A stretch of 32,606 bases of DNA from Promethearchaeota archaeon (GCA_048941285.1 JBHLNS010000032.1:1-32606); one strand, 5' to 3'. Counted from the stretch's first letter, positions 2,288-22,692 are shown. Notes: a model not told the origin generated them from the letters alone. Program-made: numbers and translations.

Positions 2288-3775
2288 ATGCCCATAATAA
2301 AATCTAAATGGATAAATAATCCAAAAATTCTTGAAATTAATACATTCCCATGGCTTTTTTCATTATCTGAAATTTTTAATACACAAATAAATTTGAAGAA
2401 CATTCCCGAACAAATTTTTAATAAAGAGATTAAATTATTTGATGCCGTTTGGTTGATGGGAGTTTGGGAAAGAAGTCCAGCAAGTAAAAAAATAGCCCTT
2501 GAACTTCCTGATCTATTAGAAGAATACCATAAGATTTTACATGATTTTAGGGATGAAGATGTAATAGGTTCACCTTATTCTATATATTATTATCATGTAG
2601 ACAAAAATATCGGAGGAATAGATGGTTTAAAGAAATTCAGGGAGAACTTAGCAGAAAAAAATATTAAGCTAATTTTAGATTATGTCCCTAATCATGTTTC
2701 TATTGATTCTTTGTGGACATTTGAGCCTAATCTTTTTATTAGAGGTTCTTTAGAAGATCTTATGGTAAAACCATATGAATATTTTTCAATAGGTCGACAG
2801 GTTTTTGCTTATGGTCGTGATCCTAACTTTGATCCTTGGACTGATGTAATTCAGATCAATGCTTTTTCATCTGAAGCTCGAAATAAGGCTATTGAAACTT
2901 TACTGAATATAGCCGAACTTTGCGATGGAGTTCGATGTGATATGGCTATGCTAATGACAAATAGAGTTTTTAGTCAAACTTGGGGTGAAAAAGCCGGGGT
3001 TATTCCTGATAAAGATTTTTGGGAAGAAATCATTCCTGCTATTAAAAAGAAATATCCAGATTTTATTTTCATAGCAGAAGTATATTGGGGGATGGAATGG
3101 GAACTTCAACAACAAGGTTTTGATTTTTGTTATGATAAACGATTATATGAGAGATTAATCTTTGAAAATATTAATGCTATAAAAGATCACCTAAAAGCAG
3201 AATGGGTTTTCCAAAGTAAACTTCTTAGGTTTATTGAAAATCATGATGAATCAAGAGCTATTGAGAAATTCGGAGAAGAAAAATCATTAGCCGCAGGATT
3301 AATCGCATTAACTTTGCCAGGAGCAAGATTAATACATGAAGGTCAACTTTATGGTTATAAAATAAAATTACCTGTCCAATTAAGAAGGCAACCTATTGAA
3401 GAGATAAATATTCAAGTGTTAAAATTTTATCAAAATTTATTAACTGCAATACCAAGTCAAGAATTTAAGAATCCTAACTGGTCACTTTGTGAAGTGATAC
3501 CAATTGTTGACGAGGATGATTCCTCTTTAAATATAATCTCTTATTTATGGTGGATAGGTAGTAGTTATCGCCTCATAGTTGTTAATTTTAGTCCAAATTA
3601 TACAAAAGCTCATGTAAAAATACGCCCGTTCCATTTTGACACATTTAAGTGGAGATTTACAGATTTACTTGATAATCGAGTGTATACTTATAATGGAGAA
3701 GATATATATAAATATGGTTTATATATTGAATTGGATGCATGGAAAGGCCATATTTTTAAAATTTCAAAGGACTGA
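2288..3775 (+). CDS. GH13 alpha-amylase family glycosyl hydrolase
   Basis: Conserved GH13 regions LDYVPNH, DGVRCDMA (nucleophile Asp), FIAEVYW (acid/base Glu), FIENHDE; GSPY motif; C-terminal beta domain; no signal peptide. Confidence 0.92.
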   Translation: MPIIKSKWINNPKILEINTFPWLFSLSEIFNTQINLKNIPEQIFNKEIKLFDAVWLMGVWERSPASKKIALELPDLLEEYHKILHDFRDEDVIGSPYSIYYYHVDKNIGGIDGLKKFRENLAEKNIKLILDYVPNHVSIDSLWTFEPNLFIRGSLEDLMVKPYEYFSIGRQVFAYGRDPNFDPWTDVIQINAFSSEARNKAIETLLNIAELCDGVRCDMAMLMTNRVFSQTWGEKAGVIPDKDFWEEIIPAIKKKYPDFIFIAEVYWGMEWELQQQGFDFCYDKRLYERLIFENINAIKDHLKAEWVFQSKLLRFIENHDESRAIEKFGEEKSLAAGLIALTLPGARLIHEGQLYGYKIKLPVQLRRQPIEEINIQVLKFYQNLLTAIPSQEFKNPNWSLCEVIPIVDEDDSSLNIISYLWWIGSSYRLIVVNFSPNYTKAHVKIRPFHFDTFKWRFTDLLDNRVYTYNGEDIYKYGLYIELDAWKGHIFKISKD

Positions 3776-19674: not shown

Positions 19675-19878
19675 ATGAGTGTTCGATGTCGTGCTTGTAT
19701 AAAATGCAGAACATATGTTGTTATTCATCCAAGTAATCCTATTAACCAAGTGGAAATCAAGACTTTTGAAAAAAATCATTTAGGTCATACCGTAGTGACG
19801 GTAGATATAAATGAGGTAAAAGGTAATTATAGTTCTGTCAAAAATCATGAAAGTCAAGCAACTCAGGAAATAGAATAG
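19675..19878 (+). CDS. Small putative zinc-binding protein
   Basis: 67 aa with CRACIKC and FEKNHLGH; AGGA upstream of the ATG. Confidence 0.7.
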   Translation: MSVRCRACIKCRTYVVIHPSNPINQVEIKTFEKNHLGHTVVTVDINEVKGNYSSVKNHESQATQEIE

Positions 19879-19900: not shown

Positions 19901-19913
19901 AAAAAAAAAAAAA
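19901..19913 (-). terminator. Oligo-T terminator for the CBS/RGG operon
   Basis: A13 on the + strand (T13 on the - strand), 12 nt after the stop at 19926. Confidence 0.6.
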
Positions 19914-19925
19914 TTAATTAATTAA

Positions 19926-21428
19926 TTATTGTTCTACCTGCGTTCCGCACCATTTACAGAATTTTTCTGTCCCTGTAAGTTTGCTTCCACATAAAGAACA
20001 TGTTTTTGCTGTAGCGGGAGTAGTTACTGAAGGAACACCTACTTGTCTTCCTTCTATTTTTCCTCCACATTTAGGACAAAATTTTGAATCAGGTTTTATT
20101 GATGCATCACAACGAGGGCATTTCATTTCCATTTCTACAGTTTCAGAAGGTGTTGTTTTATATGGTGATACTTTTTGTTGTTCTGGTGAAGTTGGTGCTT
20201 TAAGTTTTAATTTTTTCTGACCTCTTCTTGCCACAATAGCTGCTATTAATATGATGACAACCACAACAAGTACTATAATTAAAATCCACTGAACATCTAG
20301 CCATCTCTCTTGGTAGGTAACTCCAGTTTCATAAGTTACATCAAAGGTAATAGTAGTTGATTCATCAAGAGAATTCATTGGATCAAAATAGATAAAGAAG
20401 TACCAATTACCAGATGTTGGAACATTAAATGTATCTGTTGAGACCGTTGTAACATCTTCATTTGTTTCATAGGTAGGACTAAAATCTGGTACATTTACAG
20501 CAGTGTAATTTATAGTATAATCAACATCAATTGTAGAAACTCCATCGTTATACCATACAACATAATAATCTTGAGTAGTGGGGGTAATATAGAATCCAGT
20601 AGCTTGATCGGTATTTATTTCACTCACCGGAAATATTGGAGAACCTCCATAGTACCAATTATAGAAATCATATGCATCTGCTATAAAGAAATCGAGGTTT
20701 GCACTTGAATTAAAAGTATATACTATTGAAGAACCAGCTCTTAGAAATAACCACTCAGCCCAATAATCGCTTGAACCCGGGTCAATAGATATTGAATTCA
20801 CAATATCAATATATTCGGTTGTTGTTGGAAGATTTTCAAAAGGTTGATTCCAGATAGCAAATGTAATAGTACTAGGTGTAGATTGAACTGAGAACGTGAT
20901 ATCTTGATTTTGTTCTATGTATTCATATTCATACCAAAATTCATTAAAATATAAAGTCTCCGTAGATCGATAATTAACTGTACCAGTTTGATCCGCGCTA
21001 GTAAATGGAAACCAGAAGGCTACACCTGCAACTGGCAGAATTATCAATGCTAGAATTATGAAAAATGTTATTCCTCCGCCAACATAAACCGGACTATAAT
21101 ACCAAGGTCGGTACCAATGTCCTGCCCACCAAGGCGAATACCACCATCTCCAATACCAGGGTCGATGATACCACCAATATGGTCTATAATACATGCGATG
21201 GGGGCGGTAATATCTATGCGTATAGGGGCCTCTTGGCGATCTTGATACTATTCTATTGGCTCCAGTTCTACCAAAGGGTGTTCCACTTCCACGATATGGA
21301 GCTCTAAATGAACCAGGACCACCTCGAAAACCGCCACCTCTAAATCCACCACCAAAGCCCCCGCCACCAAAACCACCGCCTCGAAAACCACCGCCACCGC
21401 CACCTCTAGATCCGCCACCACGCGGCAT
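19926..21428 (-). CDS. Membrane protein: RGG/Gly-rich and aromatic-repeat N-terminus, 2 TM helices flanking a beta-rich ectodomain, C-terminal double zinc ribbon
   Basis: 5 RGG motifs; repeats YYRP/YHRP/WYSP/WYRP/YYSP; TM1 ITFFIILALIILPVAGVAFWF; acidic Thr/Tyr-rich domain; TM2 WILIIVLVVVVIILIAAIVA followed by RRGQKK; CPRC...CPKC and CSLC...CKWC. GAGGTG ribosome-binding site at 21441-21446. Confidence 0.9.
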   Translation of the reverse strand: MPRGGGSRGGGGGGFRGGGFGGGGFGGGFRGGGFRGGPGSFRAPYRGSGTPFGRTGANRIVSRSPRGPYTHRYYRPHRMYYRPYWWYHRPWYWRWWYSPWWAGHWYRPWYYSPVYVGGGITFFIILALIILPVAGVAFWFPFTSADQTGTVNYRSTETLYFNEFWYEYEYIEQNQDITFSVQSTPSTITFAIWNQPFENLPTTTEYIDIVNSISIDPGSSDYWAEWLFLRAGSSIVYTFNSSANLDFFIADAYDFYNWYYGGSPIFPVSEINTDQATGFYITPTTQDYYVVWYNDGVSTIDVDYTINYTAVNVPDFSPTYETNEDVTTVSTDTFNVPTSGNWYFFIYFDPMNSLDESTTITFDVTYETGVTYQERWLDVQWILIIVLVVVVIILIAAIVARRGQKKLKLKAPTSPEQQKVSPYKTTPSETVEMEMKCPRCDASIKPDSKFCPKCGGKIEGRQVGVPSVTTPATAKTCSLCGSKLTGTEKFCKWCGTQVEQ

Positions 21429-21431
21429 TTT

Positions 21432-22436
21432 CTATGCTGACACCTCACTATTTAAAATACTTGGTTCTTCTACTCCCCGGAAAATATAGTCTCGATTGAT
21501 TGCTAATAGTATTAATATCATCGATATAATAGATAATGTTAATCCTATTGGATCCATAGAAATAATGGGTGTTGGAGTCTCAAGTGCAAATGCTATTCCA
21601 AATAATACCCATTCAAAAGCCATAAAAAAAACAGCTAAACCTGGCACAATAGTTCTTAGAATCCAACTTGTCTGTAAATTTCTTGTATCAGAAAATCCTA
21701 CATATACAATAGAAAACAGAGAAATTATTCCAGATATTAAAAGGAAAATACTAAAAATACCAATCACTAGCCAAATAGGACCATTGTTAACGAATAAATC
21801 AAGAAAAGGTACCATGATCCCTAATCCTCTTGCTTCGAATAATGTAAAGGTTACTTTACCTCCAACTGGACCAAGTCCAAGTAAACTCATTAAATCTAAT
21901 TGATTTCCTGTATAAAAGCCAATTACTCCCGCAAGAGGTAAGATAATACCCAGAGTAAATGCTAAAATTGCGCAAGCACTAGCAAACCAGAATTCTGCAA
22001 TTCTGGTATTTTTTACAGGAATAAGTCCAATTTTATCTACATTTTGATCAGGGATAAAACTCCAACAGTCATGTATAGTACATACTCCAACAAGTTTATC
22101 GTTTTCAACCACAGGTACTATATTCACATTTAAATTACGCATTCTTGTAAATGCCTCAGTTACGGGGGTATCTAAATTCACTGGATTTATTTTATACATC
22201 GTATTTATTACTTTTTCAGTTTTAACATCTTTTCCTTCTGCTACCGTATTTTGTACTATATCAAAATCAGCAATAACACCAATAACTTTTTGGTCAGTGC
22301 CTTCAACTACGACTAAATCTGGAACTCCTAATTCTTTCATCTTTTTGGCTGCATCTTGAACTGTCGCATCTGAACTGATTATTCCATATTCATCATCAAT
22401 GATTAGATCTCTAACAAAATATTCTTTTAAAGCCAT
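21432..22436 (-). CDS. CBS-pair (Bateman) domain fused to a four-helix membrane domain
   Basis: CBS repeats (DATVQDAAKKM...LVVV...IGVIADFDI; DTPVTEAF..M...VPVVENDKLVGVCTIHD), then 4 hydrophobic segments. Only a 3-nt gap to the downstream gene. Confidence 0.88.
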   Translation of the reverse strand: MALKEYFVRDLIIDDEYGIISSDATVQDAAKKMKELGVPDLVVVEGTDQKVIGVIADFDIVQNTVAEGKDVKTEKVINTMYKINPVNLDTPVTEAFTRMRNLNVNIVPVVENDKLVGVCTIHDCWSFIPDQNVDKIGLIPVKNTRIAEFWFASACAILAFTLGIILPLAGVIGFYTGNQLDLMSLLGLGPVGGKVTFTLFEARGLGIMVPFLDLFVNNGPIWLVIGIFSIFLLISGIISLFSIVYVGFSDTRNLQTSWILRTIVPGLAVFFMAFEWVLFGIAFALETPTPIISMDPIGLTLSIISMILILLAINRDYIFRGVEEPSILNSEVSA

Positions 22437-22494: not shown

Positions 22495-22508
22495 TATATA
22501 AATCTTTC
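22495..22508 (-). promoter_or_regulatory. Putative archaeal promoter (BRE GAAAGA plus TATA TTTATATA) of the CBS/RGG operon
   Basis: The - strand reads CAGAAAGATTTATATA, about 58 nt upstream of ATG 22436. Confidence 0.6.
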
Positions 22509-22692
22509 TGTTAAAAGTAACTACTCAATTAAGAAATAGAAAAATAAAAATCGGACTCTTTATCTTTCTTATAATATAGTTAGAAATTGTATATGTTAGT
22601 TCAACTAATTTTATTTGAACTAAAAGATGATTTAGAGCATTTTTAATTCTTAAATAACTTTATTTCGAGACATTTTGGTGGATTTACCTTAA

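Follow-up and report, generated by a model that had tools for sequence, protein, structure and literature searches.

Introduction

According to a 2026 review, pollen mitosis II in Arabidopsis requires the APD1-4 proteins, which are transmembrane RING E3 ligases (PMC13210498). Here we describe two adjacent genes of a Promethearchaeota archaeon, at positions 19,926 to 22,436 on the minus strand of a 32,606-nucleotide (nt) stretch of its genome (GCA_048941285.1, JBHLNS010000032.1:1-32606; hereafter the window). Gene 1 encodes a cytoplasmic CBS pair followed by four predicted transmembrane (TM) helices, and gene 2 a two-pass membrane protein whose ectodomain is probably homologous to the outer or luminal β-sandwich domain of APD1-4 (PF16040/PF16041). 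The primary paper on APD1-4 is reportedly that of Luo et al. from 2012. In both APD1-4 and gene 2 a C-terminal zinc-binding module lies past this domain, the order in an APD cluster of the ESM Atlas being APD1-4_N, APD1-4_M and RING. Unlike APD1-4, however, the host gene 2 ends in a double zinc ribbon and not in a RING finger, and it adds an arm rich in RGG repeats and aromatic residues as well as the coupling to a CBS protein. Our literature searches, whose reach stopped short of subscription journals and supplementary tables, found no paper tying APD proteins to archaea or to a CBS partner, the relevant papers on APD all dealing with plants.

Proteins of the p24 family cross the membrane once and have a coiled coil and a short tail. 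Part of the gene 2 ectodomain, a nested domain, superposes on the GOLD domains of p24/TMED and other GOLD proteins, and it likewise would face outward from a membrane protein as those face outward or into the lumen. In contrast to p24, this domain sits inside a second sandwich, with a TM helix on either side; gene 2 gave no sequence match to EMP24_GP25L (PF01105) and does not have the p24 architecture. The GOLD fold alone is not new here, because GOLD-type domains are already known in archaea (PMC10936438). Like gene 1, MgtE, CNNM/CorC, ClC and CBS-bearing site-2 proteases combine a cytoplasmic CBS pair with a membrane domain; the membrane module of gene 1 nevertheless matches none of them by sequence, and the CBS domains of gene 1 have soluble relatives that are paired with members of the gene 2 family. 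Eukaryotic RGG/GAR regions, such as those of fibrillarin, nucleolin and FUS/EWS/TAF15, presumably resemble the arm of gene 2 in their RGG/FGG runs and in the Tyr-rich sequence nearby, whereas the arm is tethered to the membrane, bears the invariant motif PFGRTG and a Pro/Arg block rich in Trp, and has, by Pfam, neither an RNA recognition motif nor another RNA-binding domain.

Results

The two genes form a conserved unit

Both open reading frames (ORFs) were verified on the minus strand (Table 1), and each gene is single-copy in the host genome. The original prediction, made from the DNA sequence alone, had staked itself on the linkage of the two genes in other genomes, and this linkage is nearly invariable. 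Among 41 relatives a gene 1 orthologue was found in 31, with gene 2 directly downstream on the same strand in 30 of them, the exception lying at a contig end. We then have a draw of 301 genomes across the phylum, in which a match to gene 1 was counted if it covered at least 250 residues: 73 genomes besides the host had one, and the gene 2 ectodomain was encoded directly downstream in 70; gene 1 lies at a contig end in the other three, as was confirmed for one of these on the fetched contig. By blastp, the two genes stood side by side in all 32 loci examined. Matches to gene 1 were obtained in 50 of 68 genomes of family f1 (a count that takes in at least one short fragment), 7/7 of f2 and 19/21 of f26, the last being related to the host genome at the phylum level only. 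Both proteins are conserved at 40–88% identity across many genomes. A conserved third gene was rejected because the flanking genes are conserved only within a genus. The feature is real and strongly conserved, and the pair is almost certainly one functional unit.

Copies about 71% identical to the host's pair were also seen in two genomes of other families (contigs G310:C264 and G244:C11), one of them an f9 genome and the other an f26 genome, in which it is a second copy. These contigs are probably mis-binned, since 71% is the level of identity found within the host's genus.

The original prediction had further described a shared promoter, a 3-nt gap with an internal Shine-Dalgarno (SD) site and a terminal run of 13 T residues (T13), together with the domain order of both proteins reported below, and all of these were recovered in our analysis. 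The TATA box ATTTATATA, just preceded by the purine-rich AACAGAAAG, is invariant in 13/13 upstream regions of the genus, compared with a mean column identity of 74% for the whole alignment. It is this conservation that argues for a promoter composed of a transcription factor B recognition element (BRE) and a TATA box, a sequence match alone being weak in an AT-rich genome. Three nucleotides separate the stop codon of gene 1 from the ATG of gene 2 in the host, the genes overlap in several other loci, and an SD-like 5-mer starting 10–18 nt upstream of the gene 2 start was detected in 25 of 28 orthologous loci. The T13 tract is a likely terminator, judging from what is established on termination in archaea. 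A scan for sigma-70 promoters and hairpin terminators gave counts not above those of shuffled sequences, these bacterial-type signals being uninformative for an archaeon. From these sequence signals, the two genes appear to be transcribed from one promoter and translationally coupled. Contigs from three metatranscriptome libraries of two studies span parts of both genes at 95–100% identity; showing neither strand nor ends and uncontrolled for DNA carry-over, they give only a weak hint of transcription of the pair, and stretches that they leave uncovered carry no meaning.

Gene 2 combines a constrained arm, an APD-like ectodomain and zinc ribbons

The model of gene 2, built on a 28-sequence alignment, consists of a disordered arm (residues 1–113), helices at 113–139 and 372–408, and an all-β ectodomain at 150–367, the predicted local distance difference test (pLDDT) being mostly above 90 in the latter. 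The helices are flanked by basic residues towards the arm and the ribbons, and the domain between them is acidic, so that by the positive-inside rule both termini would be cytoplasmic, in agreement with the charge-based topology first proposed. The C-terminal region matches DZR (PF12773) with 46.9 bits at residues 437–495 (cut-off 27.3), and its eight cysteines (437/440/451/454/477/480/491/494) are invariant in the 28 sequences.

The nested domain of the ectodomain superposed with VIA on the GOLD domain of p24beta1 (5azw) with Z 13.3 and a root-mean-square deviation (rmsd) of 1.3 Å, over 87 of 93 residues, followed by p24gamma2 (5gu5, Z 13.0), TMED1 (7rrm, Z 12.5), SPF (Z 11.8) and p24delta1 (Z 11.5). 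GOLD domains occupy five of the six best VIA rows (rmsd 1.3–2.8 Å), which indicates a GOLD-like fold; generic jelly rolls, namely pilus, capsid, and carbohydrate- or collagen-binding modules, come next at Z 8–11. A profile of the ectodomain found nothing below E 0.99 among PDB sequences. The structure search of the ESM Atlas returned, directly after the protein's own cluster, two plant APD clusters as the nearest non-self neighbours, the first with a TM-score of 0.55 over 170 residues and the second with 0.58 over 181 residues (156–362). This second cluster has 258 members, 99% of them with APD1-4_M, 99% with a C3HC4 RING and 96% with APD1-4_N, and the aligned part is the one named APD1-4_M.

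Profile searches led to the same family. Fifteen of 28 orthologue ectodomains match APD1-4_N (PF16040) at E≤10, with a best E of 4.5e-5 and all below the cut-off, while gene 2 orthologues of the sister genus reach 28.4 and 28.1 bits (cut-off 27), two more passing when neighbouring stretches are counted. Searching the genomes with the APD1-4_N profile also revealed solitary paralogues above the cut-off, at 35.7 and 28.1 bits; by hmmscan, one paralogue scores 32.3 bits over model positions 6–71 of 71. Across the 301 genomes, 13 of the 17 places that match APD1-4_N at E≤0.001 lie inside gene 2 orthologues. None of 14 control genomes had a match above the cut-off, and the host genome gave noise hits only, elsewhere than in gene 2. 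Aligned by hhalign, the gene 2 profile and the APD1-4_N-positive paralogues match with 99.7% probability (E 2.3e-25, 148 columns). Membership of gene 2 in the APD family is transitive, since its own sequence does not reach PF16040; with this qualification, the assignment of its ectodomain to the eukaryotic APD1-4 domain family is well supported by the profile and fold comparisons, and gene 2 does not appear to be an orphan protein. A homologue search with the ectodomain profile (E≤10) collected 110 proteins, none labelled eukaryotic in an index that may not reach eukaryotes; their labels are Asgard or metagenome, except for a 180-amino acid (aa) partial protein labelled Thermodesulfobacteriota.

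The cytoplasmic arm contains several elements that are invariant in the 28 sequences: MPRGG, PFGRTG..R, and a series of P/W/R/G/Y positions ahead of the first helix. We calculated the ratio of nonsynonymous to synonymous substitution (dN/dS) from Nei-Gojobori counts in 10 sequences of the genus (45 pairs). The values are 0.125 for the arm (residues 2–118) and 0.094 for its Trp/Tyr/Arg block (76–118), compared with 0.175 for the zinc ribbons, 0.27 for the ectodomain and 0.36 for the linker. The arm thus appears to be under purifying selection and to be the best-conserved part of the protein, beyond what mere low complexity would give. Its composition is unusual as well: at least 20 Gly and 5 Arg within a 50-residue window occur in only 2 of 3891 host ORFs of at least 80 aa, gene 2 among them, and the arm has 21 Trp+Tyr per 40 residues, the next ORF of the genome reaching 12 per 40.

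Many public gene calls of gene 2 orthologues are 365–400 aa long and start past the RGG/aromatic arm, and some orthologues are named FliL, RPABC4/Spt4, or ribosomal protein L37E or L40E in databases. Because the arm is conserved and under selection, these short starts and names look wrong, and they make the family easy to overlook.

Gene 1 joins a CBS pair to an apparently new membrane module

CBS is the only family that Pfam recognizes in gene 1 (53.8 bits, two stretches), in agreement with the two CBS motifs of a Bateman pair (PF00571). Compared by VIA, the fold matches 1xkf with Z 16.0 (residues 6–129) and 2rif with Z 15.4, and the best phmmer match among PDB sequences is 2ef7 (E 4.9e-11). 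The second CBS motif reads G-V-C-T-I-H-D, with G117 and D123 invariant in the alignment, which we take to fit the ribose-binding consensus G-h-h-T/S-x-x-D/N of the CBS literature. The AlphaFold model (31-sequence alignment, pLDDT 83) places the CBS pair at residues 1–132 and four helices, as first predicted, at 144–169, 221–251, 258–285 and 296–313, with a small β sheet (175–210) between the first two.

The membrane module had no match in Pfam or NCBIfam, and a profile search of PDB found nothing below E 0.16. Among 1.84 billion proteins, its profile collected no more than 31 representatives (E≤0.001), mostly orthologues or fragments. Feature searches of the ESM Atlas scored 0.82–0.84 to unnamed clusters, which is within reach of shuffled sequences. 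By these comparisons the module appears to be new. Two distant database proteins of 380 and 469 aa (P0267 and P0270) contain it without a CBS pair and with an extra multi-helix hydrophobic region ahead of it, possibly a duplication.

Variant forms in other Asgard lineages

Gene 2 of the f26 clade has about 65 additional residues, and this C-terminal extension carries eight invariant ligands in the pattern C-x6-H-x8-C-x2-C-x4-C-x2-C-x11-C-x2-C. Five of six proteins scanned gave sub-threshold RING-type matches in this extension (zf-RING_4 at 18–20 bits in four, zf-UDP in one). A profile of the finger obtained 31 hits in PDB at E 0.0025 to 8, mostly weak ones to RING fingers, the top hit being a ribosomal zinc protein. 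Judged by its ligand pattern and these matches, the f26 finger appears RING-like.

Shorter versions of the pair exist in f18 (two loci) and f29 (one locus), two families outside the host's class, where a CBS-only protein of 135–174 aa abuts or overlaps an APD-like protein of 371–389 aa. In the latter, an arm rich in Arg, Gly, Ser and Tyr precedes an APD-like ectodomain set between two TM helices, with a lone zinc ribbon after the second helix; this protein aligns to the gene 2 profile by hhalign (E 6.9e-15 and 1.1e-11). The best match of the CBS-only protein in the host genome is gene 1 (E 6.8e-17; next 3.1e-6). One further f18 locus (L052:3596-4123 and 3174-3587) encodes a 175-aa protein in which an RG/Tyr-rich arm, a TM segment and a lone zinc ribbon are present but the ectodomain is absent; the CBS-only protein follows it. 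Outside the long form, the CBS subfamily and a partner with arm, TM helix and zinc ribbon are kept together in four of five testable loci, one further locus being at a contig edge. Because this pairing persists, the conserved core would be the CBS pair and the cytoplasmic and membrane chassis of gene 2, rather than the four-helix module or the ectodomain; and because the f18 and f29 loci hold it with a CBS-only protein, the CBS/APD-like pairing is probably older than the fused form.

Solitary APD-like paralogues with no CBS neighbour were found in four f2 genomes (L033:2219-3370, L034:1904-3145, L035:1573-3162 and L036:2125-3972). Each combines an arm rich in Arg, Gly and Ser with a TM helix and an APD1-4_N ectodomain, which in one of them scores above the Pfam cut-off, and three of them end in a single zinc ribbon, L036 having a longer C-terminal region without a ribbon. 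An Arf-like small GTPase (Pfam Arf, sub-threshold) is encoded directly downstream in two of these four loci, the other two genomes having the orthologue on another contig. An operon of the paralogue and the GTPase was not accepted, as the genes are adjacent in only 2/4 genomes. A 694-aa ORF of an f16 genome (G151:C19:18442-18540) has a sub-threshold APD1-4_N match of 21.1 bits. By itself, the nested GOLD-like domain matches many ORFs of 190–470 aa (E 1e-6 to 1e-11) in 45 of 76 genomes of f11, another large Asgard family, two tandem copies being present in some ORFs, and the ESM Atlas holds archaeal EMP24/GOLD clusters. GOLD-type domains are widespread in archaea.

Features of the operon and neighbouring genes

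A 67-aa Cys-rich ORF with CxxCxxC near its N-terminus lies at 19675-19878 on the plus strand, convergent to the end of the operon; tblastn matched it in two of 39 other loci (L002-L040), both of the same genus, over 55–63 residues at 65–67% identity. In the f26 clade the gene beside gene 2 is also convergent and was judged, by eye only, to encode a 2-hydroxyacid dehydrogenase.

Table 1. Features of the two-gene operon, numbered from the first nucleotide of the window; gene coordinates include the stop codon
Feature	Coordinates	Strand	Basis or remark
BRE-like purine run (AACAGAAAG) and TATA box (ATTTATATA)	22495..22512	-	Sequence; about 60 nt upstream of the gene 1 ATG
TATA box ATTTATATA	22495-22503	-	Purine-rich run AACAGAAAG just before
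Gene 1, CBS pair and 4-TM module, 334 aa	21432..22436	-	ORF, Pfam, alignment, model
CBS (Bateman) pair, residues 1-132, cytoplasmic	22041..22436	-	Pfam, VIA, PDB phmmer
Family-specific membrane module, residues 144-320: four helices and a small outward β sheet	21477..22007	-	Model
Internal Shine-Dalgarno site GAGGTG for gene 2	21441..21446	-	Within the last codons of gene 1
Gene 2, APD-like two-pass membrane protein, 500 aa	19926..21428	-	ORF, Pfam, alignment, model
Cytoplasmic N-arm, residues 1-118: RGG/FGG repeats, PFGRTG..R, Trp/Tyr/Arg/Pro block (76-118)	21075..21428	-	Alignment
TM helix 1 of gene 2, residues ~119-142	21003..21074	-	Model helix 113-139
Ectodomain, residues 145-370: outer β sandwich (150-195 and 320-367) with a GOLD-like sandwich nested inside	20319..20996	-	Model, Atlas, hhalign
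Nested GOLD-like domain, residues 202-314	20487..20825	-	VIA
TM helix 2 of gene 2, residues ~376-400, then a basic stop-transfer stretch	20229..20303	-	Model helix 372-408; sequence
Double zinc ribbon, residues 435-498: two C-x2-C-x10-C-x2-C units	19935..20126	-	Pfam DZR, alignment
T13 tract, likely archaeal oligo-T terminator	19901..19913	-	12 nt past the gene 2 stop codon

Discussion

We propose, with a probability of roughly 0.45, that the pair acts as a receptor or scaffold and that a metabolite bound to the CBS domains tunes its cytoplasmic output. The outer domain of gene 2 would bind an external or surface ligand, its arm and zinc ribbons would hold or release a cytoplasmic partner, either protein or nucleic acid, and the CBS protein would tune the whole through a small adenosine-type ligand. 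A regulatory pair is favoured over a transporter because the CBS subfamily stays with its partner whether or not it has its own membrane module, because the strongest constraint on the partner falls on its cytoplasmic arm and ribbons, and because the outward domain has a binding-type fold. What we infer in this model is that the two proteins touch each other, which ligand and partner they have, and which way the signal runs. Prediction of a complex between gene 1 (residues 1–334) and gene 2 (residues 100–500), both entered as alignments, gave ipSAE values of 0.01 and 0.00 against a mark of 0.32, which speaks neither for nor against binding.

Several observations weigh against this proposal. 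The ectodomain of the host protein itself matches no Pfam family at E≤10, and the whole protein has no APD hit at E≤1. Searched with Foldseek against PDB and with VIA, the whole gene 1 model returned CBS matches only; these filled both hit lists, which therefore speak to the CBS pair and not to the fold of the membrane module. Both genes are jointly missing from several near-complete f1 genomes, and since near-complete genomes of the same genus and family do without it, the pair is not essential. At an f20 locus (L051:2198-4022), the nearest CBS-only relative overlaps the gene of an unrelated 459-aa protein, which has long helical regions and a Trp/Arg-rich hydrophobic stretch. Finally, according to the 2026 review, APD proteins themselves have no known substrate or luminal ligand (PMC13210498), and for that reason the homology transfers little function.

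The APD homology could be taken to mean that gene 2 is a membrane-anchored ubiquitin-type ligase or adaptor bringing Asgard ubiquitin-like conjugation to membrane substrates, with the CBS protein as its regulator. Genes for ubiquitin-conjugating E2 enzymes (UQ_con) score above the cut-off in the host genome and in four of four other genomes tested; they are, however, general to these genomes and unlinked to the locus. The f26 finger speaks for a ligase, with its invariant ligands and its sub-threshold matches to RING families and weak ones to RING structures, but the RING-type matches all fall below the Pfam cut-offs and the top structural match points elsewhere. The host protein ends past the double zinc ribbon, where RING models reach at most 11 bits (zf-C3HC4_3, E 0.4, 11 bits), and we know of no zinc ribbon of this type that binds E2, which also counts against a ligase. 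We therefore do not call the host copy, which has no RING finger, a ubiquitin ligase; this account is unlikely for the pair as a whole and applies at best to the f26 form. It is similarly hard to favour a role in which the arm and zinc ribbons bind RNA and concentrate it below the membrane, as an RNA tether or a condensate seed. The RGG/FGG repeats and the aromatic/Arg block are indeed the most constrained part of the protein and unique in the genome, and the C-x2-C-x10-C-x2-C spacing of the ribbons is also that of RanBP2-type fingers, which sit between the RGG boxes of FUS, EWS and TAF15. Yet Pfam and NCBIfam scans found no RNA-binding domain in gene 2, the Trp/Tyr/Arg/Pro block abuts TM helix 1 and would equally suit a membrane-interface segment, and the arm is highly variable in the shorter relatives, being Ser/Arg/Tyr-rich with few RGG repeats; such a role seems improbable to us.

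MgtE, CNNM/CorC and ClC transporters typically have a CBS pair fused to a membrane domain, and gene 1 might accordingly represent a new family of CBS-gated channels or transporters, which gene 2 would serve as an accessory or regulatory subunit. The CBS domains of MgtE and CorC are among its structural matches, and the membrane module is well modelled (pLDDT 85–96). Against this, the module has no Pfam or PDB sequence match to any transporter, its helices contain no invariant charged residue (several orthologues have Q, L or I in place of E275, the best candidate), and three other loci pair the same CBS subfamily with an APD-like protein in the absence of any membrane module, all of which makes a transporter quite improbable. 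Least probable of all, we consider it very doubtful that gene 2 is a structural or adhesion protein of the cell surface whose outer domain contacts the envelope or partner cells and whose cytoplasmic parts link inward. The resemblance of the ectodomain to pilus, capsid, and carbohydrate- or collagen-binding modules would suit such a function, as would its being the fastest-evolving folded part; but one conserved variant without an ectodomain keeps its CBS partner, the cytoplasmic parts are under the strongest constraint, and the tight coupling to a CBS sensor would be left unexplained. A defence system was also considered and rejected, as no PADLOC family matched either protein at E≤0.01 and the CBS anti-phage model of NCBIfam reached only E 0.021.

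The original interpretation is supported in part. The view of the locus as a self-contained, conserved two-gene membrane module stands as originally predicted, although that prediction missed both the relation of the ectodomain to APD and GOLD domains and the RING-like finger of the f26 clade. In our searches of Pfam, NCBIfam, PDB profiles and PADLOC, neither protein matched a characterised enzyme or transporter family. The original claim that no such prokaryotic system had been described is in keeping with our literature searches, which, within the limits given above, found no paper on Asgard archaea combined with transmembrane RING ligases, with RGG, or with CBS and zinc ribbons, and on GOLD domains in Asgard archaea nothing beyond a note on methanogen GOLD-adaptin proteins.

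Outside this setting, APD domains are known from RING ligases of plant endomembranes that have no known substrate. Here, an APD-like family occurs as a two-gene unit with a predicted built-in small-molecule sensor, open to study. The locus also defines a membrane module with very few relatives in the protein databases and a membrane-tethered RGG/Trp/Tyr/Arg arm unparalleled in its genome, and it is a candidate for the short list of eukaryote-type membrane proteins that predate eukaryotes. More tentatively, and with more doubt than belief, we suggest that the pair may be an archaeal forerunner of the eukaryotic APD-type endomembrane zinc-finger proteins and thereby an unlisted eukaryotic signature protein, with a CBS-regulated, RGG-armed receptor as the ancestral state and the f26 finger marking a step toward a membrane ubiquitin ligase. 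If this is true, an outward domain of GOLD-like fold would already have been linked in Asgard archaea to metabolically controlled zinc-finger signalling in the cytoplasm, and the orphan APD ligases of plants would gain a tractable prokaryotic model.

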